From Halomicronema hongdechloris C2206 (GTDB lineage: Bacteria; Cyanobacteriota; Cyanobacteriia; Phormidesmidales; Phormidesmidaceae): a stretch of DNA of 32,000 nucleotides. Shown here in pieces: positions 1,217 through 23,510 of this stretch. The notes below the pieces were generated by a model. That model saw only the letters and a list, made by a program, of their open reading frames with translations. It was not told where the DNA came from and made no database searches. The DNA lies in assembly GCF_002075285.3 (NCBI RefSeq), contig NZ_CP021983.2:810001-842000 (forward strand). Reading direction: 5' to 3'. A program made the translations under genes and the position numbers. Numbering within the stretch: position 1 is the stretch's first letter; each line of letters begins with the position of its first letter.

Positions 1217-1939
1217 TTATTTCCTAATTAGAGAGGTTGACAATGTTTTTAGGGCTTCATCTATTCTTTGAAGACCACATTCAGAACTACTTTCACTCCA
1301 CTCTAGTAATGCATAAGTACGGATACCCTGTGCTGCAGAACTTTTGGGTATGACATTAGAGGGTGGCTTTACTATGAATAGGAGTTGTTCAAACTGAACT
1401 TGTGGAAGATTTTGGATTAAATCAAAAAGTTCGTTCCGCTGCTTTATTTCATCGTAAGTTTTAACTTGATCTTCTTCTAAATATTCATCTGATTCTAATT
1501 CATTTTGAAAGAAATCCCTAAGGCAGGTCAATAGTGAGCAAACATCATCACTAATTAAAAATCCCCATCTCTCAATGATTTCATTAATAATGTTGATCAA
1601 TTCGGAAAAATCTTTCTCTTCATATAAACCTATGCAAGTCAATAGCTGACTACCGCAATTATAGATTTCTTCCTCATCGCTGTCTTCACCAGCCTGTAAG
1701 ATGGAACTAGCAATATCTGCAGCATATTTAGTTGATTCAATGAAATTCATCCAGAATTCATTAATTGCATCTAAAAGGCGATCAGTTCCAGTAGCACAAA
1801 TTTCATGGTAATAAAATTCTATTTGGTGCTTTTTTAGATAATTCTCATAGCGAGAATATTTTGAATCGTTTTTTTCTAAACAATCTAGATCCTGTCTTAT
1901 TTCGGACAGCAAATCTTGATAGTGTCTGCTCAGCCTTCG
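1217..1939 (-). pseudogene. C-terminal part of an IS-split STAND NTPase: helical repeat region plus death-like effector-associated domain (EAD-like)
   Basis: AT-rich ORF. It joins in frame to 3113..4372 once the IS and one target duplication are removed. The tail LPQVQFEQLLFIVKPPSNVIPKSSAAQGIRTYALLEWSESSSECGLQRIDEALKTL resembles bacterial EAD/death-like adaptor modules (motif recall only). Confidence 0.6.
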
Positions 1940-3103
1940 GGAGCATCTCAAAGTTGCAAAAACATCAACAATCGTAGGCTCTATTCAGATAGGCACATCG
2001 CACCTGCAAGGCTTGCTGAACATTGTCGGGCACCCATTGAGCGCCTGGGAGTTTCATGCGATGGTCAATCTGCTTGATGGCTGACTCAACTGCACCTGAG
2101 CCAATCGAACAGATTTGTTCAGCTTGAAAATAGCCGTAATTCACAATTCGGTGACGATGTCGCTCCAAGTAATCACAGAATCGCCGGGCTTGCTCCAGAG
2201 CGCAGTCGGTAAATAACGCCTGGGTTTCATCAACCCGCCCTTCCCATAACAGAGCTTTGGCTTGTTTCAGCCGTTTTAATGAGCCCCCAACTCCATAGAG
2301 GTTTTCGACCAAGTGGTACCAATCGAGAATTTCTAAACGGGTTTCCACGGTGGCGATGGGACGAAACACCGCCCAGACGCCCCGATGCCCATCGCCAAGG
2401 CAGATGATGGGGTTCGCTAACGGTTGGCTATTTAGCCAGTCTTGCAGCCAGTCATTTGCCTGAAACGCCGCCCCATAGTACAGATTCTCGACCCGAGCAC
2501 TCTTGTATTCTTTCCAGTAACTGGGTTCGCCTTTTTCCGGATGCCGCAGGCGCACTTTACCGCCATCGACACTGATCTCGGTGACCGTCTGCTTCGCCTC
2601 CGGTGGGGTCTCACGTTGGCGTTGCACGAGGCGTTGCAGCGTTGAATGACTCAACGACATCCCCGTTAAAACGGACACGTCGGTTTCGCCTTTCCCATAG
2701 CTTTGGCAGGCCGCAACCCGCAACGCACATTTCTCAAAGAGCGGGCTGAGACGACCGTGGGGTTCGAGGCCCAACCGCTGGGCTTGCTGTTCCCGAATCG
2801 GGAGGGTCCCCAGAACACTTTTTAGCTGCCGGGGGCGTCCCCGTTGGGTTTGGGTGCACGCTTCGACAAAAAAATTCCCACTTCGGGACTGACGTGCTCC
2901 AGCATCTGCTGCCGCACCGTCGTTTCAATGCCTTCAAGTGTGTCAACGGCTTCAGGAGGGCTATTGCGATGCAGAATCTTGGCAATCTCGCGGCTATGCT
3001 GGGCTAAGGCGGCTTGGTCTTCGGGGGACAAGAGCTTTTGGGGTAGAGACTACCCTTTCATCTCAGCACAGATGCTGGGTTCTCGCAAAAATGAGATGCT
3101 CCC
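1939..3103 (-). mobile_element. ISKra4-like insertion sequence (~1165 bp)
   Basis: G+C-rich block inside an AT-rich gene. It has 12-bp perfect terminal inverted repeats GGGAGCATCTCA (1939..1950 and the reverse complement of 3092..3103). An 8-9 bp direct target duplication CAGCCTTC(G) lies at 1931..1939 and 3104..3112. Confidence 0.85.
1965..3031 (-). pseudogene. ISKra4-family transposase, reading frame broken once at an A7 run
   Basis: ORFs 2822..3031 (69 aa) and 1965..2774 (269 aa; LGDGHRGVW, LDWYHLVENL, IGSGAVES motifs) are in different frames. Adding one nucleotide to the A7 run at 2868..2874 gives a continuous ~355-aa ORF (...EVGIFFVEACTQTQRGRPRQLKSVLGTLPIREQQAQRLGLEPHGRL...). Confidence 0.75.
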
Positions 3104-3112
3104 CAGCCTTCG

Positions 3113-4372
3113 ATGAGTCTCTTGCAGTTCAGGGTTGAGCGTCGACCTTCTATAACTAATTGTTTTTTCCCTTATTAGGGAATCATAAAGCCATCCATCA
3201 GAACGATGAATTAAAAAAGGAATTGTCGTGAATAATTCAAAGCTAGTTTGTTTAAGTCTTGTACCCACGAGGAGATTATAAATACTTTCATTTATAATTC
3301 TAGGGACCGCTAGATCCAAGAATATTTTTCTATTTATCAAGGTTTTACGATTATTGAGATAGCATTCCAATACGATAGTTTCATCTAAATGAATATTATT
3401 TTTTGTGATATTCCGCAAATCTTTTACCAAGTCTTTCAGATGAAGAGGAACGCCACCCGTTAACTTTGATATAAATCTCTTGATAATCTCATCTTTAATT
3501 CCTTGGTGATCAAGAATTACAGAGATATCATTGGCCCTAAACCGATTTAACTTGACGTCAGATATAAATGAGTCAAATAAGAGCCATGTTTCCCTATCTA
3601 GCTTTTCACGACCTGAGATAACCACAATTGAATTTCCTGGTAGCCCTCTACTAGAGCCAACTGTTTCTACTAATCCTATTAGCCATGGATCCAGTATGTT
3701 TTTGTTGATATGATAGTCATCAAAAAAAAGTACTATAGGTTGATCAATAGCAGCACTTCTAAGTGCTCTTAGGAGTTCAAATGTTAGAACATCTATAGGG
3801 TTTTCAAGTAATTTCCTATCGTCTGAATTTACAATTTCTGACTTAATAAACTTCTTTAGGTCCAAAATCGCTTTCTGAAAGCCTTCTTGAATTTCTCTAT
3901 CTTGTCCAATTCTATTAATATCAAGACGATTTTTTATCTTTTCCTTCTCAGGAGATATCCTAAAATCATTGATGTTGGTAAGGTTGCTACCGATTAGATC
4001 AATATACGCTTCGGGTATGTCCGTGGTATTCTTTAACTTTGACTTTAATCTGATATAGGTTGAATAATGTTCTTCAAAAATTGGATTTGATACCTCAGAC
4101 TCTTTCAGATCTTCATATATCTTTTGCATTATTGATGGAATATCATTCAGATCTTTTTGGATTAGGGATGTAAATGAATTATTTTCAAGGGCAATATTCC
4201 TGAACTCTTTTAATAAGAATGTTTTCCCAACCTTGCTATCTCCATAAATGTTAAAGACATAGAAGCGCTTTCTGGTAGACATTCGAAGATTATTACGAAA
4301 CCTTTGTCGATATCTATTTCGCCCTGGAAACTCTTCTAGGCGTCTTATATTAAGTAAATCTCTAAGTTCCAT
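3113..4372 (-). pseudogene. N-terminal part of the IS-split STAND/NB-ARC-like P-loop NTPase
   Basis: FPGRNRY...FNIYGDSKVGKTFLL (Walker A), PIVLFFDDYH (Walker B) and LTGGVPLHL (GxP/GLPL-type STAND motif). Sampled lines are ~35% G+C against ~60% in the neighbouring cmr gene. The ATG lies 28 nt downstream of the cmr6/1 stop on the same strand. The listed tail after ...ETHRRL is read-through into the IS. Confidence 0.7.
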
Positions 4373-4400
4373 TTTCGTGGAAGGATAATGAGGCTAAAAA

Positions 4401-6113
4401 TCAGTGTCTTGGCATCGGCCATAGCTTTTTGAATAATGTTTGCTGGCCATTGAGAAACCCTAGCAGCTGCTCCGATTCCACTGAGTCATCGGGAAACACG
4501 GTGACTAGCTCAAAATATTGCCGGGTGACCAAGGGCATGGGCTTCTTAGGGTTCTCAGGATCCTTCACCAGTCGTACTTTGGGATACATGCGGTGCCACA
4601 GCCGCCCGACATTGCCCATCTGCCCGGTAATAGACGAGCGGTAAATCGATCCTTCCGGAATGCCGACCGACGGAATCGCCTCTCGATAGGGGCCATGCAG
4701 CCATCGCACCGCTTCACAATCTTCCAGTCCGTCGGTTTCGCGTCCCCACACCTGCACCTTGTCTGGATGCCAGGCCTCTCGCCAGTTGGCATGGGTGTCG
4801 AGTTGGGGCGTCCTGGTCTGCAGCTGCATCCATTCCTTGGCCGCCTGGCGCACTTCGGCAATGAAGTCGCCTACTTTTTCTAGCTTGCGCACCCGCACAT
4901 CTCGCACTTGGGACCGCTTGCCCAGCCATTCCCAGTGGCAACCGATTAGCGGTTTGTAGCCCTGATCATAATAGTCAGGGTAAACCAGACGATGGTCAGC
5001 CCGGCGCCAGGATTTGCCAAAGCCACCGAAGACCATGGCGAAGCGGGTCAGGGCCTCGATCAGTTTAGTCAGGGCTTGCCGCTGGGGCTGAGGTAGGTCT
5101 CGGGTGAGTCGCCAGAGCAATTCTCCCTCCACGGTGTAAGTGGGCTGACTATAGGAACCTTGGCCAAAATCATCCAGCTCCAACTGGGTGTCGAGAAAGG
5201 CCATACTCAGCAAGCCCACAGTGGCTCCACCCCTAATGCCACCAAAGAGATCCTGGACCAGACCTTCAGCCTGGTCGGCATTGGTTAAGCCGCCAAAGAT
5301 ACGCAAGGCATGGCCCCGGATGGCGGCGCGAAAGACATTGGGGCGAAACTCTCCAGTGCCATCTACTAACTTGGCCGCCTGACCCTGACCTTTGAGGCGC
5401 GTGCGGTAGAGAATATCGCCGCTGCGTTGTTGAGGTTGGCCATAGCCAGCACTGACTCGGCAGCCCAGCCCCAGGGACAGCGCCGTTTCCCAGATGTGCC
5501 AGATTTGTTCCCATTCAAGGTCATCCAGGGGAGTAGTGCTGGAGATGCCGACTATCAGCTCGGGTTTATAGAGGGAGATCTGTATGAATGCCCCGCCTTC
5601 CTTATCGTTCGATTTGACCTGCCACTGCTGCTGGGGATGGACAATATCCACCAGGTTCTGAGTCCAGCGGGTGTCGGTGGGGTAGCCGCCGTGAAATCGT
5701 AAAATACCAGGGCGAAAGTCATTATTTTCTAGTTTTTCGCCGCAGTAGCGATCGCATGTCCCCAGTTTTAATTCCCCGGCCCGTTCCAATTGGTGAGCCG
5801 CCTGGCGAAATACGCCCTTCATGCTGCTGCCGGGGTAAAAGGGCCAACCCCTGGCCCCAATTACCGGACGAATCACCCCGTCGTCTTGACCGCTATTGGT
5901 AATGAAGCGCCAGCTCAGAGCATAGGGGCGGGTTTGCACGTCTTTGCCAAAATTAGGCGCATCGGGATAGGCTTTGTCGACCCATTCATCGGCCCAGCGC
6001 TCGGCATCTTGTTCCAAGGCCTTGGGAATCAGTCGCTGTACCTGGCAGCGCCCCTCCACCTGAGCCCGAAACATCAGGGGAACTTTGTTGGCGGCATCGG
6101 TGAGAGTAGACAT
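4401..6113 (-). CDS. cmr6: type III RAMP protein, apparent Cmr6-Cmr1 fusion (two RAMP domains)
   Basis: The N-terminal half has VIRPVIGARGWPFYPGSSMKGVFRQ and GLGCRVSAGYGQ (Cmr6-like). The C-terminal half has EFRPNVFRAAIRGHALRIFGGL, LFGGIRGG and FGGFGKSWRR (Cmr1-like G-rich loops). It is the last cas gene of the operon. Confidence 0.75.
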   Translation of the reverse strand: MSTLTDAANKVPLMFRAQVEGRCQVQRLIPKALEQDAERWADEWVDKAYPDAPNFGKDVQTRPYALSWRFITNSGQDDGVIRPVIGARGWPFYPGSSMKGVFRQAAHQLERAGELKLGTCDRYCGEKLENNDFRPGILRFHGGYPTDTRWTQNLVDIVHPQQQWQVKSNDKEGGAFIQISLYKPELIVGISSTTPLDDLEWEQIWHIWETALSLGLGCRVSAGYGQPQQRSGDILYRTRLKGQGQAAKLVDGTGEFRPNVFRAAIRGHALRIFGGLTNADQAEGLVQDLFGGIRGGATVGLLSMAFLDTQLELDDFGQGSYSQPTYTVEGELLWRLTRDLPQPQRQALTKLIEALTRFAMVFGGFGKSWRRADHRLVYPDYYDQGYKPLIGCHWEWLGKRSQVRDVRVRKLEKVGDFIAEVRQAAKEWMQLQTRTPQLDTHANWREAWHPDKVQVWGRETDGLEDCEAVRWLHGPYREAIPSVGIPEGSIYRSSITGQMGNVGRLWHRMYPKVRLVKDPENPKKPMPLVTRQYFELVTVFPDDSVESEQLLGFLNGQQTLFKKLWPMPRH

Positions 6114-6344: not shown

Positions 6345-6767
6345 CTACTTATATCGCTGGGTCCACCAGACCAGACAATCGCAGAGTTGGGTCAGCACTG
6401 CCAGGGCCAATCGTTGGTCTTCTAGAGTTAACATTTTGCCGCTGGAATCTACTGGAATTTCTCCCCAAAGCTTTTGTGCCATTGCTTTAGGGTCAGAGTC
6501 GTTGGGAAGAGTGACATCTGCTGGACCCAGTATGTTAGCCAGTATGTCCCAGGTGGCTTTCCAATACCGGGACTTTTTCTCTTGTTTCCCTTGATGACGC
6601 ATGTGTTCGCCCCAAAACCGTTCCAACCCATAGGCGACTGATTCCCGCATCTTATAAGATTCACGCAGACAGGCGTCACCTTTTATATCTTTATCGTTAT
6701 CAATATCTAGCGCCTGAAGCACCAGCCACTGGGCTTCTCTATCGAGTCCGTATGCTTGCCATCCCAT
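6345..6767 (-). CDS. cmr5: probable type III small subunit (Cmr5/Cas11-like)
   Basis: 140-aa protein that looks helical, in the canonical position between cmr4 and cmr6. The call rests on position and size; no strong motif was recognised. Confidence 0.5.
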   Translation of the reverse strand: MGWQAYGLDREAQWLVLQALDIDNDKDIKGDACLRESYKMRESVAYGLERFWGEHMRHQGKQEKKSRYWKATWDILANILGPADVTLPNDSDPKAMAQKLWGEIPVDSSGKMLTLEDQRLALAVLTQLCDCLVWWTQRYK

Positions 6768-6785
6768 AGATATTTCCTCCTCGCA

Positions 6786-7835
6786 TTATGCGTCTGCATC
6801 GTCTGGCGTATCGCCAAAATAGTCGCCAGCCAGCGTCACTTCACAGTGACCACAACCGATAGATTCCAAGCCCCCGAAGTACAGCTCTCGCAGGGTGCGA
6901 TTTTTAAAGGGTTTCCAGCGGGCACTGCCATCTGCGGAAGCGTCCGAGGCTCTGTCATAGTGCGGAACGCTGTCTTTTACAGCAATCGGAAAGATCAAGA
7001 TACTGTCTTCGGGCAGTGCTTCAAACCCGAAGAAGTTTTCTACTTTTTTGACATCGTCTTCTAGCTTGGTGCGGGTTTGACGATAGAGCGCCATGTCATG
7101 AATGATGCTGATGTCTTGATCATCCACAACCACTAAGTTGTCAGGCTGGATCTGCGAGTCTTTGGGAACCCAGTTAGACAGGTCAGGCGTTTCCGCCAAA
7201 TTATCCAGAAATCCTAAGTTGAAGAAGAGGCGATCGCGGTGTTCCCGCAGCTTTACCGGATATTGCTTTGGTTGGCCATCAGCCGCTGCCTTGGGACGAA
7301 GCACTGGCTCAGGCTTGCCAGTAATCTGTTTGTAGCGACGCAATAGTCGGGGACAGCTCACCCAGACCACCGGCTGTCCTGGACAAAAGACTGGAATCCA
7401 TACCAGGGACGCATACTCAAACTTAACCAGTGCCTCTGTGGTGCCGCCATCTTCCTGACCGGTGACGGCATGATGACCATACCAGTGATTTTCGTTCACC
7501 AGCTCAGGCACTGAAATCGATTGCTTCTCGGCTTCCTGCTCTAGCCATTCCAGCCGGGGCAACCGTTTCTTTGGGTCCTCCGGACTGCTGACTTTACGGG
7601 CTGTCGCTGCTGGAAGGTCAACGCCTGCTGCCTTCAACGATGCTTCTAAGTGCTGTTGCCGTCTCAGGCGCATATCGGCGCGAAAGCGACCGCGAATGGA
7701 GCTGCCGGGGATAATTCCCGTCTGGGTGAACTGGTCGCGAAAGATCAGATTCAGGTTACCGGTTTCTTCGCCGGCGCTGGCCCCCACATGGAGCGGGGCC
7801 AGGGTTTCGATGATGCCGTAGGCTCTGTGATACAT
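6786..7835 (-). CDS. cmr4: Cmr4 (Cas7-family backbone RAMP)
   Basis: TLAPLHVGASAGEETGNLNLIFRDQFTQTGIIPGSSIRGRFR is the classic Cmr4/Csm3 N-terminal motif and includes the Asp of the RNA-cleaving loop. The C-terminal glycine-rich LYFGGLESIGCGHC is also present. Confidence 0.85.
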   Translation of the reverse strand: MYHRAYGIIETLAPLHVGASAGEETGNLNLIFRDQFTQTGIIPGSSIRGRFRADMRLRRQQHLEASLKAAGVDLPAATARKVSSPEDPKKRLPRLEWLEQEAEKQSISVPELVNENHWYGHHAVTGQEDGGTTEALVKFEYASLVWIPVFCPGQPVVWVSCPRLLRRYKQITGKPEPVLRPKAAADGQPKQYPVKLREHRDRLFFNLGFLDNLAETPDLSNWVPKDSQIQPDNLVVVDDQDISIIHDMALYRQTRTKLEDDVKKVENFFGFEALPEDSILIFPIAVKDSVPHYDRASDASADGSARWKPFKNRTLRELYFGGLESIGCGHCEVTLAGDYFGDTPDDADA

Positions 7836-7875
7836 AGGAAAACGAGAAACAAAGAACGACGCAGAAACACGTAGC

Positions 7876-7938
7876 GTGGGTTAGGCGCGATCGGGAGGGA
7901 AACCGGCGCTGGGGGCCGACATCAGAGCCGTAACCCAC
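7876..7938. repeat. GTGGGTTA...TAACCCAC hairpin element in the 129-nt cmr3-cmr4 gap
   Basis: 8-bp arms at 7876..7883 and 7931..7938. The preceding GTAGCGTGGGT is shared with 11236..11246. It belongs to the same GTGGGT/ACCCAC family as the hairpins at 646..668, 11242..11262 and 11302..11324. Confidence 0.6.
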
Positions 7939-7964
7939 GGGGCGCACACGGGAACACAGGAGAA

Positions 7965-9155
7965 TTACGGTAGCGCCCCCGATACGGGCAACGCCAAGCC
8001 ACAGCCCCAGCGTTTGAGAGAGGGTCCCTCGCGGGGGAACCAGTCCAGGGGCCAGTCTTGCCAGGTGGCATGGTGATCGGGGAACGTGTCTTGCAAGACA
8101 TAAACGCTGCCAGCCGGGACGGCGTAGCGACCTCGCGACAGGACCTTAGGCTGGTTAGGTTGATGGACATCTTCTCCCTGCTGGTTCTTGCGGTTGCCCA
8201 GGCGGTAGCGAAACGTCGTGGGACGTTCCGTGATTAACGTGGCGACATCCCAGAGTTTGGCTAGGTCTCTGTTGATCTCTGCAAGCTGGTGGCGGCTCTT
8301 GTCGCCTTTCTTCAGCAGCCTGGGACTACGGTAAGACAGACGGTTTGAGCCCCAAACAGCCGGGGTAATCAAGGCAAAGCTTTTGCCCAACGGATGGGAT
8401 AGCAGCTTATGGAGTTCAGAACCTGCTGAGATCGGGTGACAGGTGAGCTCTACCATGTGTCCTTCACCGCCGAAGCGGTACCAGCCGTTTTCCACCGAGA
8501 GGTTGGAGAGATAGACCAAACACGTCTCAGGATGCATTTGCACCCCATTTTCTAAGAACAGACTGCCACGTTCGCGATCGGCATCGACCCGGCGTTCGTT
8601 TTCCATCAGGTAGGGATGGAGATGGGGGGTGTAACGCCAAGGATCACCGTAGACAGTCGGCTCCTGATAGTCGGGTTGCCATTCGTTCAGTTTTTTCCAA
8701 TCGTTGATGGCGACCCAGGTGCCTCCTTCAGGTTTACCGAGAGCTTTATCTGAGATAGGTTGCCAGCTCTGGCCATCCCACTCCAGGCGATTGACTAACG
8801 ATCCTTCAGACACGTCGGTTGCATCGTGCTGAGGCTCTAGCTTGGCCAGACAGTTCATGGGAGTAGGAACGTAGATATTTTCTCTATCGGCGGTGTGGGT
8901 CCACTGCCAGAAAGGACCCGCCAAACAGAGGGGCTTGAGGATGTCGTCTAGGGCTTGCTTACTCTCGGCGTGCTGAGCGTAGTGGGCCGCGATTAAGCCA
9001 GATAAGACGGCGGTACTAGGAGGGAATTGGCTGCCCGATCGCCCCACCAAGTTTTCCGGAGATAGAAATCGCCCGGTACTGCCATAGAGCAGACCCAACG
9101 GCTGGATGGTGATCAGGTATTGAAAGGGCGGTAAGGAGGGGCTATCGGTGGTCAT
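7965..9155 (-). CDS. cmr3: Cmr3 (Cas5-family)
   Basis: ITIQPLGLLYGSTGRFLSPENLVGRSGSQFPPSTAVLSGLI matches the Cmr3 N-terminal pattern. The gene lies directly downstream of cas10. Confidence 0.8.
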   Translation of the reverse strand: MTTDSPSLPPFQYLITIQPLGLLYGSTGRFLSPENLVGRSGSQFPPSTAVLSGLIAAHYAQHAESKQALDDILKPLCLAGPFWQWTHTADRENIYVPTPMNCLAKLEPQHDATDVSEGSLVNRLEWDGQSWQPISDKALGKPEGGTWVAINDWKKLNEWQPDYQEPTVYGDPWRYTPHLHPYLMENERRVDADRERGSLFLENGVQMHPETCLVYLSNLSVENGWYRFGGEGHMVELTCHPISAGSELHKLLSHPLGKSFALITPAVWGSNRLSYRSPRLLKKGDKSRHQLAEINRDLAKLWDVATLITERPTTFRYRLGNRKNQQGEDVHQPNQPKVLSRGRYAVPAGSVYVLQDTFPDHHATWQDWPLDWFPREGPSLKRWGCGLALPVSGALP

Positions 9156-9175
9156 AGCATTTTACGGGTGGCTGC

Positions 9176-11074
9176 TTAGGCGGCGAGTTGGGCCATGTCT
9201 GAGCGATTCAGGTGAAAGCCGACTTTGGCCAGGTTGATGACCCAGGTGTTGAAATCTCGCAGTACAAACCTATGGGTGTTAAGGCGCTGCCAGGCATCAT
9301 TAGAGCTATCGAACTCCGGCATGTATCGCTGAGGGTCACCCAAGATGCCGCTAAAGAGGCGCTTGCCGGTGTTGGGATCATCCCGGTTCCACCAGTTGGA
9401 TGGATGTCCTAATAGCTGACGATACGGACGACCAAAGTAAACCTCGATCAACCCGAGCGCTACATCAATCTGGGCGCCATGAAAGGCGTGGCGAGCTTCG
9501 AGGACAGCAATATCGTTATAGATATGGGTCCAGCCTGGATCGTTGCAGGTTGGCATTAACCCGCTTAAGTCATGGGTATCCAGAGAATCTAGATCCTGCG
9601 ATCCCGAAAAATCACCTTCCAACAGCCACCAGGGACAGACCCACTCCAAGTGATTACCGCCGTTGAACAAAATGCGAAAGGCGATGCGGTCTTTGCCGTG
9701 CCTCTTTGCCGACTTCTCTGCTTCGCGGCAATGCTGCAACACATCTCGCTGGGGCACCTTGGGAGCCGCCCACACAAACCCAACGCTCACCGTGATGGGT
9801 TTTGAGTCGTTATCAGAAGTCGGAGGAGCATTGCTCACCGCTGCCGAGGGGCGAGTCAGATCAGGATTCTCCCAAACGTGAGACTTAAAAGTACTGAACC
9901 AGTGCAGACACTCATGGGGCTGTATTTCTGCCCGTTCCCGGTAGAGCACCCCGAGAAAGTCATCGCCCCCCGCGTAAATCATGCGGCCATTGCCAGGCAG
10001 AATAGGCTCGGTTTGACCATTTCCATCCGCTTGGGGCCATTCGTTCTGGTACAGTCGTTGGCCCCACTGTCGCATTTGGCAACTAAAGTCGGTGTAATCC
10101 TCGTCGCTGTGGCAGTGATGGGCCAGATAGTTACCGGCGTTGTCGCCGTCGCCCATGAACCAGCCCGTCCAGTATTCCGGCTCTAGGGCTTGATTCGCTT
10201 TTTTATACTTGCGCTTGAGGCGATTTAAATCAGTAAACCTTTGTGGATCTAGTTCATGAGCAATGGCGGTGATGGATTGTAGCTGATCGCGATCGAGGTC
10301 ATAGTCTCTGACTTGGCTCTGGTAGTTCGTCTGGATTCTTTCAGAAAGGGCTTTGTGGGTGACTAAGCGCTTGACCAGCTCTGGAATGCTCAGTTCCTCG
10401 TCTGGATCGACGAAGGCAGCACCGTACTCAATGGCTTTCGTCTCAGGATCAGCAGGCGTGAGTCCGACGGCTTCTATGAATGCCTGACCCAGGGTTCGGC
10501 TCAGGGTGGCATAGAAGGCCTCAATTTCAGTCTTTTGCTGCTGGTAGTTGATGTCGCGGGGGCTGAGATACCCTAGCTTGGGCCAGGCGATGCCATCGGC
10601 CCCTGACAGAGTTGAGCTTTCACCCGTCCAGTTGACGCCCGTCCAGTTGCGGGAGCGTTTTTTCTCCAGCACTGCCGTTCTCGCGGCTGGGATGGAGCAT
10701 CCAGTTGCGATAAAGAACTCCCAGGCATACTTTGCCCACAGTCCCCAGGACCGTTCCCAGTAGTAGGCGTCGGATATCTTGCATTCGATCCACTGGCGGC
10801 AGGTATCTACCACACACTGCCAGGCAGAGAAGAAAGCCGTTTCAGTCTCTTCCGGCGGCACGTTACCACGAACGAGAATCAGATTCGGCATGCCCTGACG
10901 CACATTGGGCAGGGCTGGAGAGATCACAGAGCACTCTGGTTGGGCACTGCAAATCGCCCAGGATAAGAACGAGAGCAGGTAGGAGCTGCCATAGAGGTCT
11001 CGCAATTTGCGGGAGTTTTCAATAAAGCCTTGGATAGGAGCGAAGGTAATAGCCGTGTAGACGGGCTTAGACAT
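9176..11074 (-). CDS. cas10: Cas10/Cmr2 large subunit without an HD domain; cyclase palm motif intact
   Basis: The protein starts directly at the post-HD motif TFAPIQGFIENSRKLRDLYGSSYLLSFLS. It has WFMGDGDNAGNYL and MIYAGGDDFLGVLY (GGDD). At 632 aa it is too short to carry an N-terminal HD nuclease. Confidence 0.85.
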   Translation of the reverse strand: MSKPVYTAITFAPIQGFIENSRKLRDLYGSSYLLSFLSWAICSAQPECSVISPALPNVRQGMPNLILVRGNVPPEETETAFFSAWQCVVDTCRQWIECKISDAYYWERSWGLWAKYAWEFFIATGCSIPAARTAVLEKKRSRNWTGVNWTGESSTLSGADGIAWPKLGYLSPRDINYQQQKTEIEAFYATLSRTLGQAFIEAVGLTPADPETKAIEYGAAFVDPDEELSIPELVKRLVTHKALSERIQTNYQSQVRDYDLDRDQLQSITAIAHELDPQRFTDLNRLKRKYKKANQALEPEYWTGWFMGDGDNAGNYLAHHCHSDEDYTDFSCQMRQWGQRLYQNEWPQADGNGQTEPILPGNGRMIYAGGDDFLGVLYRERAEIQPHECLHWFSTFKSHVWENPDLTRPSAAVSNAPPTSDNDSKPITVSVGFVWAAPKVPQRDVLQHCREAEKSAKRHGKDRIAFRILFNGGNHLEWVCPWWLLEGDFSGSQDLDSLDTHDLSGLMPTCNDPGWTHIYNDIAVLEARHAFHGAQIDVALGLIEVYFGRPYRQLLGHPSNWWNRDDPNTGKRLFSGILGDPQRYMPEFDSSNDAWQRLNTHRFVLRDFNTWVINLAKVGFHLNRSDMAQLAA

Positions 11075-11386: not shown

Positions 11387-12100
11387 TTACTGGCTTCTCA
11401 AAGCTTGGGTAATCTGAGCCGCATCAACCACTGCGCTAATCAGAGTGCCGCGCATATTGGACATGATGTAGTTGAAATCTTCAGGAAACGTGTTGACCGC
11501 TTCGATTATGCCCTTGACGTAAATCACCAGCACCGTTGGTCGGCGCCGTTGGGTGAGTTTCGCCGCCGCTTCCTTGACTAAAGCTTCCTTGCGCTCGGGC
11601 GATAGCGACGGCGTCATCAGATCCAGCACAAAGACATGGCTCTCAGGCCAGGCTCGTTCGGGGTCATAGAGAAACGGGGCCATCTGGAATCCGCGTGCGT
11701 CTAACAGGTCATACTCCGTGGGGTATCGTTCCGGCTCACCCGCCACAAATACATAATCCACCTGAGTACGGCCAATGGCGGCTTCTCGACCCACCATCTT
11801 TTTGATGTAGCCGATCTCCTCATCTACCTTAGTGGCAATCTGGCGATCTACTTCTGAACGCACCTGTTCCGCCACTGACAGCTTCACCTCTTGAATCGTC
11901 TGCTGCACTTCCTGGCGAGTGCGGACGCCAACGAAGGCCAGTAGAATGCCCACGACCACAAAGATCGTGCTGATGGCACCAACGAATAGGTTAAAGCTGG
12001 TGGTGAGCTGAGCGTGGGACTCTCGAAAGAGCTTAATCAGGTCAGTGGGGGTGGCGGGGTCAGACGTTGCCTGGGCGATGACAGCATGAAGCAAGACCAT
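11387..12100 (-). CDS. single-pass membrane protein with coiled-coil linker and a C-terminal alpha/beta (Rossmann-like) domain; family unknown
   Basis: TM helix FNLFVGAISTIFVVVGILLAFVGV, then a charged helical stretch, then alternating hydrophobic strands YVFVAG / HVFVLDL / TVLVIYVKG. The gene is on the same strand as cas10 and immediately upstream of it. Confidence 0.55.
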   Translation of the reverse strand: MVLLHAVIAQATSDPATPTDLIKLFRESHAQLTTSFNLFVGAISTIFVVVGILLAFVGVRTRQEVQQTIQEVKLSVAEQVRSEVDRQIATKVDEEIGYIKKMVGREAAIGRTQVDYVFVAGEPERYPTEYDLLDARGFQMAPFLYDPERAWPESHVFVLDLMTPSLSPERKEALVKEAAAKLTQRRRPTVLVIYVKGIIEAVNTFPEDFNYIMSNMRGTLISAVVDAAQITQALRSQ

Positions 12101-12338
12101 AGAAGCCAGTGGAGTTTAATGCACCTCAGTATAAATCTCGGGTCCGCCCTTCTTACATAGCCCCTCTCATTTTGGGAAATTTGCTTTCGCCCTGAGGAGA
12201 GCCTGGAGCATGGGTCATTTCCCAGGCCGCAAACAGCTATTCTCTGGCCCCGCGAGGACCCATGCTCCTCCAGGAAATAGCTGCCCGCATGCCTGCCGCA
12301 AAGGGCATCCAGAGAACCATGGCATCCTCAGAACGGAT

Positions 12339-12370
12339 CGGCTCCCCTGCTCCCCTTGTGAGAGTAGCGG
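12339..12370. repeat. 32-nt direct repeat flanking the Uma2 gene (left copy)
   Basis: CGGCTCCCCTGCTCCCCTTGTGAGAGTAGCGG compared with 13051..13082 CGGCTCCCCTGCTCCCCTCGTAGAAGTAGGGG: 28 of 32 identical. Confidence 0.6.
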
Positions 12371-12428
12371 CATCCTAACCCCTGGGCTATGCTGGCCCCA
12401 TAGCGATCTCCCTCCCCCGACACGCCCC

Positions 12429-13046
12429 ATGGTGACCATCCCGCTTCCCGATGCCCAGCTGATGAGCTTCGACGAGTTCATCGCCTGGAAACCCGACAAC
12501 CAACCCTATGAACTCCACCATGGCACCCCCATCGAGATGCAGCCCACCGGCGACCACGAAGAAATCATCGCCTTCTTAAATTCAGTGCTGGTACTGGAAG
12601 TGCATCGGCTGCAGCAGCCCTTGATGCTGCCCAAGCAAGCTCTGGTCAAACTCCCAGATGAAGACACCGCCTACCTGCCCGATGTGTTGCTGCTGAACCG
12701 CGAGGCCTTGCCCCAAGAACCCTTGTGGAAGCGAGCCTCAACCGTCACCCAAGGAATATCAGTGCCCTTGGTGATCGAGGTGGTCAGCACTAACTGGCGC
12801 GATGACTATGGCAAGAAACTGGTGGATTACGAGAGCCTGGGGATTGCCGAATATTGGATCGTTGACCACTTAGGATTGGGCGGACGTCGCTACATTGGCT
12901 ATCCCAAGCAGCCGACCCTCTCGGTCTATCGTCTGGTGGATGACGAGTATCAGGTCCGTCAGTTTCGAGGTCAGGAGCCGATCCAATCCGGGCTATTTCC
13001 CGATCTAGCATTAACGGCAACAGCGATTTTTCGAGCTGGGCCATGA
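12429..13046 (+). CDS. Uma2-family (DUF820) putative restriction-endonuclease-like protein
   Basis: MSFDEFIAW...YELHHGTPIEMQPTGDHEEI...YLPDVLLL...PLVIEVVSTNWRDDYGKKLVDYESLGIAEYWIVD is the typical Uma2 pattern. I start the gene at the ATG at 12429, because the 73 upstream codons of the listed ORF are P/C/G-rich junk. Confidence 0.8.
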   Translation: MVTIPLPDAQLMSFDEFIAWKPDNQPYELHHGTPIEMQPTGDHEEIIAFLNSVLVLEVHRLQQPLMLPKQALVKLPDEDTAYLPDVLLLNREALPQEPLWKRASTVTQGISVPLVIEVVSTNWRDDYGKKLVDYESLGIAEYWIVDHLGLGGRRYIGYPKQPTLSVYRLVDDEYQVRQFRGQEPIQSGLFPDLALTATAIFRAGP

Positions 13047-13307: not shown

Positions 13308-13601
13308 CCTTAATGTTGTTACAACGCGACTTGCTTTCGTTACATCAAAAGCTGCTCACGTTCGACCGCGACTTGCTTTTGTTACAACGATAGTTGCTTT
13401 CGTTACACCAAAAGCTGCTTTGCATCGAACAATAGTTGCTCACGTTATAACAATAGCTACTCACGTTGTAACAATAGTTGCTCACGTTGTAACAATAGCT
13501 GCTCACGTTACAACGAGACTTACTTTCGTTACACCAATAGCTGCTCTCGTTACAGCAAAAGCTGCTTTGCATCGAACGAAAGTAGCTCACGCTCGAACAA
13601 A
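13308..13601. repeat. tandem repeat, 14 copies of a 21-nt unit (consensus about GTTACAACAATAGCTGCTCAC)
   Basis: The units partition exactly every 21 nt from 13308. There are two alternating subtypes (..AAAAGCTGCT.. and ..GAGACTTGCTTTC). Both strands stay open because the period is a multiple of 3. Confidence 0.85.
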
Positions 13602-14454: not shown

Positions 14455-14591
14455 AATCATGACGCCATATCGAAGCAATGCTGAGATCATCGTCAGCGGC
14501 AATCGTCGCCCGCCCCAATTCACTTCCTACTATTTTCGACCAGACCTAAGTCTGGATCAATACAAATGTTTTGGTTTGGGAGTTATTTATT

Positions 14592-15596
14592 ATGTGTGAC
14601 CTTTATGTAGTAAAGCAAGGCACCTGCCTGCGTAAAGAGCATGGACGCTTTATTCTCAATCCGCCTGAAGATGACGGCTTAGAGATTCCTATTCGAGAGA
14701 TCGAGCGCATCCTGCTCTTTGGTAATATCCAGCTCAGCACTGCCGTGATCGGCACCTGTCTGCAGCAACAGATTCCGGTGGTCTTCCTCAGCCGAACCGG
14801 CATCTATAAAGGACATCTCTGGAGTGCTGAGCTTAGAGATTTAGAGGCTGAACGTAACCAGTTCCTGAACTATACCGATAGGACCTTTCACTTAGAAACT
14901 GCCCGAGCCATCATTCGCGGCAAGCTCGTGAACTCCAGGCAACTCTTACTGCGCCTCAACCGCAAGCGTCACCTGGAGACCGTCGCCAATGCTATTAGTG
15001 GAATTCAGCGAGACATTAATGCTTCAGAGACAGCGGGCTCCGTTGACCAACTGCGAGGCTACGAAGGCATTACGGCTGCTCGCTATTTTCCAGCCCTGGG
15101 TCAGTTATTGATCACCCCTGACTTTACCTTTGAAGAGCGCAACCGCCGCCCACCTAGGGATCCTGTCAACTCCCTACTGAGCTTTGGCTACACGCTGCTT
15201 TCGAACAATGTCATGAGTCTCATCCTGGCAGAGGGCTTAAATCCCTACCTGGGCAATCTCCACCGCTCCGATAAAAAACTACCGGAGCTGGTGCTCGACC
15301 TCATGGAAGAGTTTCGCTCCCCAGTCGTGGACACCCTGGTGGTGACGCTGATTAATCGCCGCACCCTGCACCCCGATGACTTTACCTGGCCCACCGAAAC
15401 CGGTGGCGTCTATATCGCCGATGCCGCCCGGCGACGGTTTATTCATGCCTTCGAAGCCAATATGAACCAAAGCGTTAAACATCCAGATGTGCAAGAACCG
15501 GTGACCTATCGCCGCGCTATTCACTACCAGGTGAAGCGCTATAAACGAGCCCTGCTGGAGGTTATACCTTACCAACCTTTCGTGAGGGCGGCCTAA
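14592..15596 (+). CDS. cas1: Cas1 integrase
   Basis: CDLYVVKQGTCLRKE..., LRGYEGITAARYF, RNRRPPRDPVNSLLSFGYTLL and LNPYLGNLH...LVLDLMEEFR are canonical Cas1 motifs. I take the ATG at 14592 rather than the listed TTG at 14571. Confidence 0.9.
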   Translation: MCDLYVVKQGTCLRKEHGRFILNPPEDDGLEIPIREIERILLFGNIQLSTAVIGTCLQQQIPVVFLSRTGIYKGHLWSAELRDLEAERNQFLNYTDRTFHLETARAIIRGKLVNSRQLLLRLNRKRHLETVANAISGIQRDINASETAGSVDQLRGYEGITAARYFPALGQLLITPDFTFEERNRRPPRDPVNSLLSFGYTLLSNNVMSLILAEGLNPYLGNLHRSDKKLPELVLDLMEEFRSPVVDTLVVTLINRRTLHPDDFTWPTETGGVYIADAARRRFIHAFEANMNQSVKHPDVQEPVTYRRAIHYQVKRYKRALLEVIPYQPFVRAA

Positions 15597-15871: not shown

Positions 15872-16073
15872 ATGCCTCCCATCGACGCACCCCTACCAAT
15901 GGCTGTAGCTCCCATTCTCTCGTGGAGGTGCGTCGATGCCTTGCACCATCAGGGGTTTGAGCATTGGTTGGAGGCTGAAATGCTCGATTTTGAGCATGAT
16001 GGAGTATCCTGTTTAGCAGGTGCGTCGATTCAACGGCTGAAACCCGCTCCGGGCAAGGCCCCCCAGACGAACT
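15872..16073 (+). promoter_or_regulatory. CRISPR leader
   Basis: 202 nt between cas2 and the first repeat. The 11-mer GGTGCGTCGAT occurs at 15927..15937 and 16019..16029, and inverted at 15881..15891. Hairpins GAGCATT...AATGCTC and GCTC-GATTTT-GAGC lie in 15959..15995. Confidence 0.7.
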
Positions 16074-19000
16074 CCCACCGATTGGGTTAATTCGGAATAG
16101 TTGGAAACCGCTTGAACACCCGGATCAGTATCCGCAGCGATCGCCCACCGATTGGGTTAATTCGGAATAGTTGGAAACTCACAGTCCTCGCTGAATTCGC
16201 TTCATTTTGAGCCACTCACCAACCCACCGATTGGGTTAATTCGGAATAGTTGGAAACTCAGGGAACAAATTGATTTTGCCGTTCACCCAAATTGCGGCAT
16301 AGATTACCCACCGATTGGGTTAATTCGGAATAGTTGGAAACTCTTTATGCTCTGGTCTGTAGAGCTCTGGATTCAGCATCCCCCACCGATTGGGTTAATT
16401 CGGAATAGTTGGAAACTGATTAAGTTCGGGAACACAACCATCTGCAGTGTTATGCCCCACCGATTGGGTTAATTCGGAATAGTTGGAAACCCTCGATGTC
16501 CTTGAAGTTTTATAGGCTCTTTAGTATCCGCCCCCACCGATTGGGTTAATTCGGAATAGTTGGAAACCTTCTGCTAAGAAAGGATCCATCGTCAAACACG
16601 ATAAACCCCCACCGATTGGGTTAATTCGGAATAGTTGGAAACGCTGACGTAGCGCAAACCATTCTTCAGCCAGGAAGCTTGGCCCCACCGATTGGGTTAA
16701 TTCGGAATAGTTGGAAACCCGTAGGCCCCATTTGCAACTGCGCGAATACAGGATTCCGTGCCCCCCACCGATTGGGTTAATTCGGAATAGTTGGAAACAG
16801 CAAGGGTTTCAGCCATTCCTCTCCCTTTGCTATACTCTTCCCCCCACCGATTGGGTTAATTCGGAATAGTTGGAAACTCGGGTATCAGTGCTGCTCCTAG
16901 TGCCTTAACCCCAACTCAACCCCCACCGATTGGGTTAATTCGGAATAGTTGGAAACTTTGGAAAGTAGTTTATATAAATTTAGATGACTCCGAAAGCCCC
17001 CACCGATTGGGTTAATTCGGAATAGTTGGAAACTAAATACGGGTGGACCTTCAAAGATTTTGATTCTGTTGACCCCCCACCGATTGGGTTAATTCGGAAT
17101 AGTTGGAAACTTATTCGAACCACTTGGATAAAGTCAACGAACAATTGACCCCCCACCGATTGGGGTTAATTCGGAATAGTTGGAAACGCGGGGAGCAGTC
17201 AACAGGTTGGTGAGTTTCTCATGTATGTTGCCCCCACCGATTGGGTTAATTCGGAATAGTTGGAAACCGTAACAGAGGTGGTCTAAGCTCTAAAACCCTT
17301 GCTGTGTAGGAGTTCCCCCACCGATTGGGTTTAATTCGGAATAGTTGGAAACAGTTCCTCCAAAAGATGTTTCTCAGAGTGTGGCGACCCCCCCACCGAT
17401 TGGGTTAATTCGGAATAGTTGGAAACAATAATCAGTATAAAACTGCCCATTCGTAATACAAACACCCCACCGATTGGGGTTAATTCGGAATAGTTTGGAA
17501 ACCTAGTAATCCCCTGTTTGTTTTTGTAAGGGTAAGGCCGGTTGCCCCACCGATTGGGTTAATTCGGAATAGTTGGAAACGAAGGACGCATTATTGATCT
17601 TACTGGCGCAACCAACCCCCACACCGATTGGGTTAATTCGGAATAGTTGGAAACCTTCGAAAGAAAAGACCTTTTCGGTTTCTATATCTGAATCTCCCCC
17701 CACCGAATTGGGTTAATTCGGAATAGTTTGGAAACAAAGTATCTACAAACCCAGCGGCGACCGCCCCCGGGCCCCCACCGATTGGGTTAATTCGGAATAG
17801 TTGGGAAACAAAGCTTGGGCCAGCTCTAAAGCACTGGCATCAACTTCCCCCCACCCGATTGGGTTAATTCGGAATAGTTGGAAACTGTTCAGGGTGTTCA
17901 ATGGTAGTTGTTTTAGTTAGCCCCCACCGATTGGGGTTAATTCGGAATAGTTGGAAACGTTAAGTAAAAATTTTATTGAAAGAGTTCTTACCTTAACCCC
18001 CACCGATTGGGTTAATTCGGAATAGTTGGAAACCAAATACATCCAGTCATAGAGGCGATTGTAAGGCAGCCCCCACCGATTGGTTAATTCGGAATAGTTG
18101 GAAACTGGCTGCATCGTCGCCTGGTGAAGCTAACGGAGCAAACCCCCACCGATTGGGTTAATTCGGAAATAGTTGGAAACGGGGTGGTGACTAGCTCGTA
18201 GCAAGCAGTCAGCTCCCCGCCCCCCCACCGATTGGGTTAATTCGGAATAGTTGGAAACGGACTTAGGTACAGGGTTGTTTAGATGGACCTATTGGATCGC
18301 CCCCCACCGATTGGGTTAATTCGGAATAGTTGGAAACTTTTCCAAGATTTGGCAAATCAGCGGCGTGTCGTTGCCCCACCGATTGGGTTAATTCGGAATA
18401 GTTGGAAACAGATGTCACAACAAACCCTGAGGCCGCAGCATACAAGACCCCCACCGATTGGGTTAATTCGGAATAGTTGGAAACACTTGTCGGATCAGTA
18501 ATTTACTGAGATCTCATCGCAGCCCCCACCGATTGGGTTAATTCGGAATAGTTGGAAACTGGGCCGGCGACTTGGTAGAGGTAACGGGGGTCCCTCTTCC
18601 TGTTTCCCCCACCGATTGGGGTTAATTCGGAATAGTTGGAAACCCACTGAAAAAGTTAGAGCTGTTATTGTTATAAACGATGGCCCCCACCGATTGGGTT
18701 TAATTCGGAATAGTTGGAAACTGTGGATTTAATGCTGCCGGGTCTCGTTATTGTTGTGAATACCCCCACCGATTGGGTTAATTCGGAATAGTTGGAAACC
18801 CGTAATGGCAATTTTGTTATTATCTAGGTAATGAGAAAATTCTTTCATAGCCCCACCGATTGGGTTAATTCGGAATAGTTGGAAAACAACTCTTGGGGAT
18901 CGAGGAGTACGGAAAATGCTTCATCCCCCCCACCGATTGGGTTAATTCGGAATAGTTGGAAACTCGTTGCCGATATGCAATCGCAGCGGGCAGCTCTTCT

Positions 19001-22000: not shown

Positions 22001-22012
22001 ATAGTTGGAAAC
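16074..22012 (+). CRISPR. CRISPR array, 78 repeats and 77 spacers
   Basis: The 35-nt core is CCCACCGATTGGGTTAATTCGGAATAGTTGGAAAC, preceded by 0-4 extra C. I located 78 copies by hand, with repeat starts 64-83 nt apart. With the 35-nt core, the spacers whose length I computed run from 35 to 49 nt. The ...GTTGGAAAC 3' end and the cas2-proximal leader set the transcription direction to plus. Confidence 0.95.
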
Positions 22013-22035
22013 CGAAGAAAAGAACGAGGGCGGAG

Positions 22036-22238
22036 GGCGGAAGAACGAGGAGATTAGAGTGAAGGTGCTCACAAATGATGAGCCTCTCACCATTGGACTC
22101 TTCCGTCCTCTCTCTTCCCTCTTCCGTCCTTCGGACCATGGGCGGAAGAACGAGGAGATTAGAAGAAAGATGCTCACAAATGATGAGCCTCTCACCATCG
22201 GACTCTTCCGTCCTCTCTCTTCCCTCTTTCGTCCTTCG
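22036..22238. repeat. tandem duplication (period 105 bp) of a ~98-bp element with purine-rich and pyrimidine-rich arms, abutting the last CRISPR repeat
   Basis: Units 22036..22133 and 22141..22238 (GGCGGAAGAACGAGGAGATTAGA...GCTCACAAATGATGAGC...CTCTTCCGTCCTCTCTCTTCCCTCTTCCGTCCTTCG) differ at only a few positions. The 5' arm pairs imperfectly with the 3' arm. Confidence 0.8.
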
Positions 22239-22250
22239 AAGTTTGAGAGA

Positions 22251-22487
22251 GTAGGTAGGGTGGGCAAAATCAGGATATAGCAAGCCTAACTGAATTTAGA
22301 ATGAGAATCGCTTACAAAGCCTATAGTCTATGGAATGCTGTTCGAAATTCAACTGTGATTGCTATAGATAACCCTCGCTGGTGCCTGTAAGCTTTGTTTG
22401 CCCACCAATTTTTTCAGCGGTGGGCATTGTAGTTTGAGTGTGGGTTAGCCAAGATTTCGGACAAGATAATGCCCACCCTACGAGCTC
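22251..22487. mobile_element. copy A of a 148-bp MITE (TIR GTAGGGTGGGCA..AT), carrying a nested 87-bp mini-MITE
   Basis: Same sequence as 26957..27104 and 28445..28592, except for an insertion at 22278..22364. Confidence 0.8.
22278..22364. mobile_element. 87-bp mini-MITE inserted in MITE copy A
   Basis: Absent from copies B and C, which read CAGGATAGATAACC. It is flanked by a TA duplication (22276..22277 and 22365..22366). Its ends TAGCAA...TGAATTT.GAA and the reverse complement of the other end match at 18 of 26 positions. Confidence 0.7.
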
Positions 22488-22541
22488 ACTTTTTAACCAA
22501 ATTCCTCCCTCTTCCGTCTTCTCTCTTCCGTCCTTTCAACT

Positions 22542-22564
22542 CCGATTGGGTTAATTCGGAATAG
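22542..22564 (+). repeat. orphan partial CRISPR repeat (positions 5-27 of the 35-nt core)
   Basis: CCGATTGGGTTAATTCGGAATAG is identical to the repeat interior, then continues ATGACGGCTCAAAG instead of TTGGAAAC. It lies 530 nt beyond the array end. Confidence 0.75.
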
Positions 22565-22579
22565 ATGACGGCTCAAAGT

Positions 22580-22740
22580 CCCTCTCCCGCTCTGGGAGAG
22601 GGATTTAGGGAGAGGGAAAACTCAGCTATCAAAGAGCCTTCCTCCACGGAATTCGCCCCTTCGCATACCAGGTGGGCAAGCCAAAGATTGACCCTACCTA
22701 GCTAAGCTACCGATGCTGGGCTTACCCACCCTACAATTCC
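22580..22740. repeat. 161-bp composite repeat, copy 1 (GGGAGAGGG hairpin unit plus ~90-bp GGTGGGCAAGCC/GGCTTACCCACC element)
   Basis: Near-identical to 23511..23672. Its second half recurs at 28765..28852. Confidence 0.8.
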
Positions 22741-22964
22741 TGGGAGAGGGATTTAGGGAGAGGGAAAACCCAGCCATCAATGCGCTTTCTCACGCTAAGT
22801 TCGCCCTCTATCCCCTAACCCCCCTACGACTGCGCTCAGGGCATCGCTTTCTGCCAAAATGGGCGAAAGGGGAACCAGACCCATCAAAGACTACTCCCAA
22901 CATGAGATAACCCCTTATAGAAAGGGCATTCTTACCCAAAGAACACCACTCGAAAACCCGCCCA

Positions 22965-23506: not shown

Positions 23507-23510
23507 TGAG

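Follow-up and report, generated by a model that had tools for sequence, protein, structure and literature searches.

In type III CRISPR-Cas, signalling is known to pass by way of cyclic nucleotides to CARF or SAVED effectors and, in type III-E, through a bound protease. Here we describe a gene in the cyanobacterium Halomicronema hongdechloris C2206 that stands last in a type III-Bv effector operon, encodes a predicted STAND-type NTPase ending in an adaptor-type domain, and has been split in two by an insertion sequence (IS). The gene lies in a 32,000-nucleotide stretch of contig NZ_CP021983.2 (positions 810,001 to 842,000), which is called the window below and whose first letter is position 1 in all coordinates.

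Results

A gene divided by an insertion sequence

The features of the interrupted gene, in the order of its transcription, are as follows.

3113..4372, minus strand: 5' part of the STAND gene, codons 1-420, encoding the NTPase core, then helical and winged-helix domains
4220-4243, 3713-3733 and 3437-3457, minus strand, inside this 5' part: Walker A, Walker B and GxP motif, respectively
3104..3111: right copy of the target-site duplication, CAGCCTTC, 9 bp with the G at 3112
1939..3103, minus strand (transposase strand): IS of the ISKra4 family, 1165 bp
1939-1963 and 3079-3103: terminal inverted repeats of the IS, 25 nt, 80% complementary
1931..1938: left copy of the target-site duplication, CAGCCTTC, 9 bp with the G at 1939
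1217..1938, minus strand: 3' part of the STAND gene, codons 421-660 and stop, encoding a variable helical arm/sensor, a linker and the adaptor domain
1232..1438, minus strand: adaptor domain with four helices, from the class of effector-associated domains (rebuilt-protein residues 588-656)

Two AT-rich open reading frames (ORFs) on the minus strand, 3050..4372 and 1217..1951, lie on either side of the IS. When 3113..4372 is joined to 1217..1939, the resulting 1983 nt are in frame and comprise 660 codons and a stop, and the junction (...THRRL/SRHYQDLL...) is collinear, with no indel, with the uninterrupted 667-aa homologue P0001. Since the two half-ORFs combined match full-length homologues at E = 0, the reconstruction is not a product of chance, and the 660-aa protein that a first-pass annotation of the sequence had obtained by removing the IS is borne out. 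In its present state the 5' ORF extends to 3050 and so carries 17 additional IS-derived codons; the annotated product XM38_007940, which begins at an internal Met, is 100% identical to residues 31-440 of ORF 3050..4372, the 17 IS-derived residues included.

The IS has the features of the ISKra4 family: its 269-aa ORF matches the family transposase model NF033572 (E 5e-72, 243 bits, with a cut-off of 205 bits), and it has terminal inverted repeats and a target-site duplication. The same annotation had delimited the IS correctly and had given it perfect 12-bp termini; the outer 12 nt (GGGAGCATCTCA) are indeed perfect, but the inverted repeats in fact run to 25 nt. The duplication CAGCCTTC(G) comes to 8 or 9 bp according to where the shared G is placed. 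The transposase is encoded by ORFs of 69 and 269 aa, with a frame change at an A7/T7 run (2868-2874): the copy could be defective, the frameshift programmed, or the homopolymer misread in sequencing. A comparison of the IS with a plasmid collection gave no near match.

The insertion site, at codon 420/421, parts the NTPase/helical/winged-helix core from the sensor and the C-terminal domain. By interrupting the gene after the winged-helix domain and ahead of the sensor, the element is predicted to leave the module inactive in H. hongdechloris C2206, with the upstream cmr genes untouched. Both halves of the gene are still open, so the insertion appears to be recent.

Assignment to the STAND NTPases

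The rebuilt protein contains a Walker A motif (GDSKVGKT), a Walker B motif (VLFFDD) and a GxP-type motif (GGVPLHL), and residues G49, K50, T51, L215, D218, T305, G306, G307 and P309 are invariant in an alignment of seven family members. An AlphaFold2 model of an intact homologue, with a mean predicted local distance difference test score (pLDDT) of 77, places in order an NTPase fold, a helical domain (helices 280-354), a winged helix (362-411, a helix and a beta-hairpin), a helical arm/sensor (413-567), a disordered linker and a four-helix domain (582-663). A helical insert of about 110 residues separates Walker A from Walker B in the model. The best fold matches found by Foldseek in the PDB were MalT (8bob, E 1.6e-4), Avs3 (9.5e-4), Cdc6 (1e-3) and Dark/Apaf-1 (1.5e-2), with RdrA also among them; the TM-scores of these matches are low, at 0.15-0.25.

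Profile libraries are less informative. Pfam AAA_16 matches below its threshold (E 4.9e-6, 27.6 bits, cut-off 32.6 bits), there is no Pfam match to NACHT or NB-ARC, an NCBIfam scan of the rebuilt protein returned nothing useful, and separate Pfam and NCBIfam scans of the C-terminal, sensor and linker pieces found nothing. PDB sequence searches likewise gave no match, and the only hit among the PADLOC defence models was PDC-S27 (E 0.0055 over about 70 residues). Taken together, the motifs and the modest fold matches make a sound case that the gene encodes a STAND-type NTPase, as first proposed from its motifs, with the domain order of the model now added.

The C-terminal domain behaves as an adaptor

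With a profile built on the final ~87 residues, a search of 1.84 billion representative proteins yielded 793 representative clusters at E<=1e-3 and 485 at E<=1e-10. Among the matches listed, the domain is N-terminal in 73, C-terminal in 45 and internal in 11, with 8 proteins carrying multiple copies (in tandem, up to seven) and 17 being short or consisting of the domain alone. Partner domains in 120 adaptor-matching proteins were counted as follows.

Pentapeptide repeats: 21
TIR_2: 19
TRADD-like_N: 17
TIR: 11
NB-ARC: 7
NACHT: 7
CHAT: 6
nSTAND1: 4

Further companions are a calcineurin-like phosphoesterase, AAA_35 and a protein kinase, and in one protein the domain is fused to EAD9. A clear natural example of adaptor bridging is provided by a MoxR-vWA ternary conflict locus (L065, 6620-14746, GCA_050565655.1), in which the third gene encodes an 810-aa protein (P0010) made up largely of seven tandem adaptor copies, the next a 175-aa protein with EAD1 and the adaptor in different halves, and the one after that EAD1 joined to trypsin.

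This pattern of fusion and terminal placement matches the definition of the effector-associated domains (EADs; EAD1-12 and bDLD1-3) given by Kaur, Burroughs, Iyer and Aravind (PMC7159879, PMC8195603), and the assignment of the C-terminal domain to this adaptor-type class, made earlier from its appearance, is thereby supported at the level of domain architecture. No Pfam or NCBIfam model matched at E<=1 for either the window domain or the ten short representatives scanned, in a library that contains EAD9 and with EAD1 and EAD7 recorded for neighbouring genes. Identity with Pfam EAD1 (PF19955) was considered and rejected: EAD1 and the adaptor sit side by side in separate halves of the 175-aa protein, and no hidden Markov model match was obtained. 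An hhalign comparison with three EAD1 sequences showed only a weak resemblance (E 0.015 over 70 columns).

The further description of the C-terminus as 'death-like' found no support. The domain is modelled as four helices (pLDDT 81), Foldseek returned no significant match in the PDB (best E 4) or among viral structures, and of the 24 weak PDB hits roughly twelve belong to PYD, DED or DD folds, at TM-scores of only 0.34-0.46.

The gene directly follows cmr6/1 in every lineage

Upstream of the STAND gene lies the following III-Bv system.

4373..4400, minus strand: spacer of 28 nt from the cmr6/1 stop to the STAND ATG
4401..6113, minus strand: cmr6/1 fusion, 570 aa, the upstream neighbour of every STAND family member
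6345..11074, minus strand: remaining III-Bv effector operon, with the genes in the next four lines
6345-6767, minus strand: small subunit (cmr5-like)
6786-7835, minus strand: cmr4
7965-9155, minus strand: cmr3
9176-11074, minus strand: cas10/cmr2, 632 aa, with Cmr2_N and palm2 domains, GGDD intact and no HD domain
14571-15596: cas1
~16070-22030: CRISPR array of ~78 repeats

Matches to Cmr2_N, Cas10 palm2, Cas_Cmr3 and RAMP/Cmr4 identify the operon, together with a sub-threshold RAMP match for the 570-aa protein, a Cmr6/1-type protein common to 50 cyanobacterial loci. The III-Bv arrangement, with a Cmr1-Cmr6 fusion and no Cas6, is known from Synechocystis CRISPR3, and such systems depend on host RNases (PMC6546367). 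The scan of window ORFs, which for Cas6 was not exhaustive, turned up neither Cas6 nor a CARF domain.

The STAND gene was correctly recognized at first pass as the last gene of a type III operon with an HD-less Cas10, its ATG (4372-4370) lying 28 nt past the cmr6/1 stop (4401-4403). A promoter or terminator parting the two genes had been named as a point that would speak against this placement; no promoter-like or terminator-like site was found on the minus strand of the 28-nt spacer.

The STAND family is rare, with nine clusters found (P0001-P0007, P0016 and P0044). Scoring how often uninterrupted homologues lie near cmr or cas10 genes had been suggested at first pass, and in 9 out of 9 lineages with readable context (the window, L001/2, L003-6, L007, L058, L059, L060/61, L062 and L063) the gene directly follows cmr6/1. 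The full operon of cas10, cmr3, cmr4, small subunit and cmr6/1 is visible in L001/2, L003-6, L007 and L060/61, and in L058, L059, L062 and L063 the C-terminus of cmr6/1 lies just upstream. The spacer is 19-46 nt in the six lineages measured (~34 nt in L007, counted from the conserved Met) and ~190 nt in L059. The flanking genes are different in every STAND-bearing locus, and the cmr6/1-STAND junction is kept throughout. Linkage in all nine lineages argues against a chance landing in a defence island.

Outside cmr operons no member of the family was seen, and a scan of GTDB genomes with STAND-family peptide patterns revealed no relative. A set of 50 more III-Bv loci, drawn from GTDB species representatives, contained neither the STAND gene nor the adaptor (0/50); at least 26 of these loci have 2.9 kb or more of downstream sequence. 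In these other loci the gene directly after cmr6/1 varies.

L041: CARF protein (Cas_APE2256)
L034: SLOG/LOG protein
L015: second RAMP protein
L057, 11665-13203: below-threshold Csm6-HEPN match, E 0.0096
L020, 11686-13341; L021, 11674-13095; L032, 11790-13277: no Pfam match
L038 and L039: below-threshold DUF3134 matches

The STAND gene thus occupies a variable slot that in at least one sister locus holds a nucleotide-signal sensor. The proteins at this position in L020, L021, L032 and L057 are 470-550 aa long, with G+C under that of cmr6/1 (e.g. 0.41 vs 0.50; 0.33 vs 0.40), and may be further uncharacterised ancillary families. The cmr6/1-STAND junction has also outlasted insertions into the operon interior: two Uma2 genes lie between the small subunit and cmr6/1 in L003 (7110-8248), and a nucleotidyltransferase/HepT (MNT/HEPN) pair lies there in L007 (7576-8223).

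Low G+C content is an old property of the family

The rebuilt gene has 33.9% G+C, with 28% at third codon positions (GC3), as compared with 57.0% (GC3 64%) in cmr6/1, 54.5% in the IS, 51% in the window and 54.6% in the H. hongdechloris genome (PMC6416890). In 500-bp windows the AT-rich ORFs stand at 35-39% G+C and the neighbouring cmr genes at 55-60%, and the gene is the only AT-rich stretch in the 32 kb. While this AT-richness had been noted correctly at first pass, its reading there as 'compositionally foreign', a gene that had been 'captured', is contradicted by the related loci: the STAND gene has 34-38% G+C (GC3 28-34%) in every lineage, beside cmr neighbours of 47-61%, and ~35% is kept in orthologues down to 31-37% identity. 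The same low value across diverged orthologues points to an old, maintained family property, not a recent import.

The STAND gene diverges far faster than cmr6/1: between lineages its protein is 31-53% identical and Cmr6/1 69-79%. By region, identity is 32-34% in the winged helix and sensor, 51-53% in the NTPase core and 46% in the adaptor. Between the window and its closest relative, L002, the STAND gene has a synonymous divergence (dS) of 0.31 and a ratio of nonsynonymous to synonymous divergence (dN/dS) of 0.24, and is under purifying selection; the corresponding values are 0.34 and 0.18 for cas10, and 0.61 and 0.10 for cmr6/1.

AGA, AGG and ATA are used 4-7 times more in the STAND gene than in neighbouring genes, and its codon adaptation index is 0.56 vs 0.60-0.74. 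One idea is that the ~35% G+C results from selection for rare codons, which would limit the dose of a dangerous protein encoded on a shared mRNA; another is repeated gene replacement out of an AT-rich pool. The star-like identity matrices do not separate the two.

Other features of the window

Just upstream of cas10 (11387-12100, minus strand) lies the gene for a 237-aa protein that carries a membrane helix at its N-terminus. The protein matches nothing in Pfam, is conserved in L003 (E 4e-117) and partly in L002, has a weak match in L024, and is possibly a further accessory or signal receiver of the STAND-bearing III-Bv branch. A Uma2 gene (12210-13046) is divergent from the operon, and between it and cas1 lies a 21-bp tandem repeat of ~11 copies, 70% matching (13318-13566).

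Within the operon, cmr4 is 71% and the small subunit 60% identical between the window (6345-7835) and L002 (4207-5474), with a dS of 1.76 for cmr4, while on either side cas10, cmr3 and cmr6/1 share 89% identity (dS 0.34-0.61). The operon is a mosaic whose middle seems to have been replaced by recombination.

The repeats of the CRISPR array are 36-37 nt long (…CCCACCGATTGGGTTAATTCGGAATAGTTGGAAAC) in units of ~75 nt and match none of the Rfam CRISPR-DR families; no Rfam family was found elsewhere in the window. Many repeats vary by one base in the length of a homopolymer (GGG/GGGG, TT/TTT), which may reflect assembly errors. Downstream of the array a region rich in mobile elements (22035-28860) holds three DDE transposase genes (24016-25062, 25428-26594 and 27130-28341). 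Also present there are a tandem duplication of 105 bp (22035-22238) and repeats, 47-149 nt long, that recur at ~22340-22700, 23510-23670, 26956 and 28411-28860. Zero spectral counts for XM38_007900-007960 in the proteome of the genome paper were not used, as misfitting gene ontology terms make the locus-tag mapping unreliable.

Discussion

A candidate signalling ATPase of a III-Bv branch

We give about an even chance to the reading that this NLR-like (STAND) signalling ATPase is a dedicated ancillary component of one small cyanobacterial branch of III-Bv systems. Its placement as the last gene after cmr6/1 would in every case suit co-transcription. In other settings the adaptor connects STAND, vWA-MoxR and TRADD-N cores with TIR, caspase-like and peptidase effectors. 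Upon activation the ATPase would oligomerise as STAND proteins do, clustering its adaptor tails, and these would recruit, by like-with-like binding, proteins with the same adaptor that are encoded elsewhere in the genome. Recruitment would then turn on suicide or dormancy effectors, leading to growth arrest or death. As input, either the Cmr complex once activated, or its Cas10 product, or else a rapidly evolving phage factor might serve, and the AT-rich, rare-codon sequence may keep the protein scarce compared with the Cmr subunits translated from the shared mRNA.

A link to Cmr or Cas10 is favored by the CARF protein that fills the post-cmr6/1 slot in at least one sister locus, and by a Cas10 that lacks an HD domain, retains GGDD and has no CARF protein nearby. 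The complete chain of events, in which target-RNA recognition by the III-Bv Cmr complex, or the Cas10 product, switches on the ATPase, an adaptor 'signalosome' recruits TIR, caspase-like or TRADD-N effectors encoded elsewhere, and rare-codon bias has been selected for low dose, is put forward tentatively, as something possible and not as the probable outcome.

Several observations weigh against a dedicated role in type III immunity. All STAND-bearing loci form one clade in which Cmr6/1 is at least 69% identical, so that the nine linked cases may amount to one acquisition with retention and not nine independent associations. The sensor is ~32% identical where Cmr6/1 is 69-79% identical, a misfit with a conserved Cmr surface or a single small-molecule ligand as input. 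Pairwise identities of STAND and Cmr6/1 correlate only weakly (rho 0.34, p 0.21), a test of co-divergence that is uninformative because the tree is star-like. No CARF or SAVED domain was detected in the 660-aa protein with Pfam, NCBIfam or PADLOC. Finally, no second adaptor-bearing protein, of the kind envisaged at first pass as a partner with the same EAD, turned up either in the window or, within 10 kb, in any of the related loci; word-indexed protein searches with adaptor alignments returned just 2 and 5 hits and are uninformative on partners in H. hongdechloris.

Some of these points would be accommodated by an independent antiviral STAND similar to Avs, with its variable helical domain as the sensor of a phage protein and its adaptor as the signalling part, riding the cmr operon for co-regulation and co-transfer, with no link to Cmr or Cas10. 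We regard this, too, as possible although not the likelier course. The winged helix and sensor are the fastest-evolving regions (32-34% against 51-53% in the core), as in the arms races of NLR and Avs proteins; Avs3 is among the best structural matches; synteny within one Cmr6/1 clade could descend from a single event; and defence genes commonly cluster. Against such a passenger speak a position directly after cmr6/1 in 9/9 lineages despite reshuffled flanks and operon interior, the lack of any family member seen outside a cmr operon, and the PADLOC models, none of which matches beyond the PDC-S27 hit at E 0.0055.

A regulator or assembly ATPase resembling MalT, which would control transcription of the locus or the loading and turnover of the crRNA ribonucleoprotein, with a C-terminus that binds nucleic acid or a Cmr subunit, seems to us improbable. 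MalT (8bob, E 1.6e-4) is the top structural match, and MalT-type STANDs end in a small helical DNA-binding domain. In addition, III-Bv systems without Cas6 use host RNases (PMC6546367), leaving room for extra maturation factors. Against this, the C-terminal domain is found fused to TIR, CHAT, TRADD-N, NACHT and kinases and in arrays of up to seven copies; such promiscuous fusions and tandem arrays suggest adaptor behaviour and not DNA binding. The domain has no match to a helix-turn-helix family, and 50 other III-Bv loci function without the STAND gene.

That a recently acquired foreign gene or decaying junk landed beside the cmr operon by chance is very hard to credit: the gene lies 20 points under its 54.6% G+C genome (PMC6416890) and contains an IS, but orthologues with as little as 31-37% identity share the position and the ~35% G+C, dN/dS is 0.24 and both halves retain open reading frames.

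Comparison with known systems

Like Avs, bNACHT and MalT proteins, the window protein combines a P-loop core bearing Walker A, Walker B and GxP motifs with helical and winged-helix domains, followed by a variable helical sensor and an extra terminal output domain. Unlike in these proteins, the output domain is C-terminal and is an adaptor in place of an enzyme, no Pfam NACHT or NB-ARC model matches and AAA_16 remains sub-threshold, an insert of ~110 residues lies between Walker A and Walker B, and the gene is found only in cmr operons.

The adaptor resembles the EADs in being small, all-helical and placed at protein termini, in its partners (TIR, caspase/CHAT, TRADD-N, pentapeptide and STAND modules), in the presence of several copies in one locus (L065), and in its fusions to EAD1 and EAD9. 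It differs from the EADs that have been modelled in having no Pfam or NCBIfam model, and its occurrence next to EAD1 within one 175-aa protein indicates a separate family. EADs were not linked to CRISPR-Cas effector operons in the work that defined them (PMC7159879, PMC8195603).

Type III-E, with Cas7-11 and TPR-CHAT (Csx29), and the CARF/SAVED ancillaries share with the window system a non-Cas signalling or effector protein encoded with type III effector genes. The window STAND, however, has no CARF, SAVED or protease domain, and its output would be adaptor recruitment as opposed to a built-in enzyme. A parallel in gene association is offered by the STAND-TPR NTPases of Streptomyces, which accompany degenerate type I-E systems (Shmakov et al. 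2018, bioRxiv 10.1101/270033; PMC8730458), also a monophyletic STAND clade with long-term linkage to a class 1 effector module. Those type I-E derivatives have no Cas3, Cas1, Cas2 or array, whereas the III-Bv system of the window is complete, with cas1 and ~78 repeats, and the Streptomyces STANDs belong to a different family, with TPR repeats and no adaptor domain. Near CRISPR loci, previous work has noted vWA-MoxR-VMAP modules that include CARF domains, as well as NACHT or CHAT proteins (PMC10910872).

The accessory survey of Shah et al. (PMC6546367) and a 2024 effector survey (PMC11229360) describe no gene of the STAND-adaptor kind within a type III-B operon. Cluster 124 of Shah et al., a III-B cluster of unknown function averaging 430 aa, was weighed as a possible earlier description and set aside for its misfit in size. 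The text of the 2025 classification (PMC12669027) mentions STAND linkage only for type I-E derivatives and no STAND-adaptor type III-B gene; the word 'STAND', listed with the abbreviations of its Fig. 2 legend beside the type III panel, could not be tied to a type III variant. The earlier view that the coupling is undescribed therefore stands with respect to the surveyed literature and is qualified by that one legend.

Implications

The association described here would add to type III systems an ancillary family and an output logic that are both new, built from a new STAND family and an EAD-class adaptor family that, judged from its profile matches, spans at least 793 clusters and is without a model in current domain libraries. 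The STAND gene itself stays ~20 G+C points below its operon through deep divergence, and the intact orthologues P0001, P0005 and P0044 are ready experimental constructs. If the proposal is true, type III output would gain a third kind in a dedicated NLR-like ATPase that bears a homotypic adaptor, and the system would relay adaptive, RNA-guided sensing in bacteria to an innate effector network resembling apoptosis. STAND/EAD/TIR/caspase conflict systems are proposed ancestors of animal apoptosis adaptors, and CRISPR immunity would then be joined to these systems, which are typical of multicellular bacteria.

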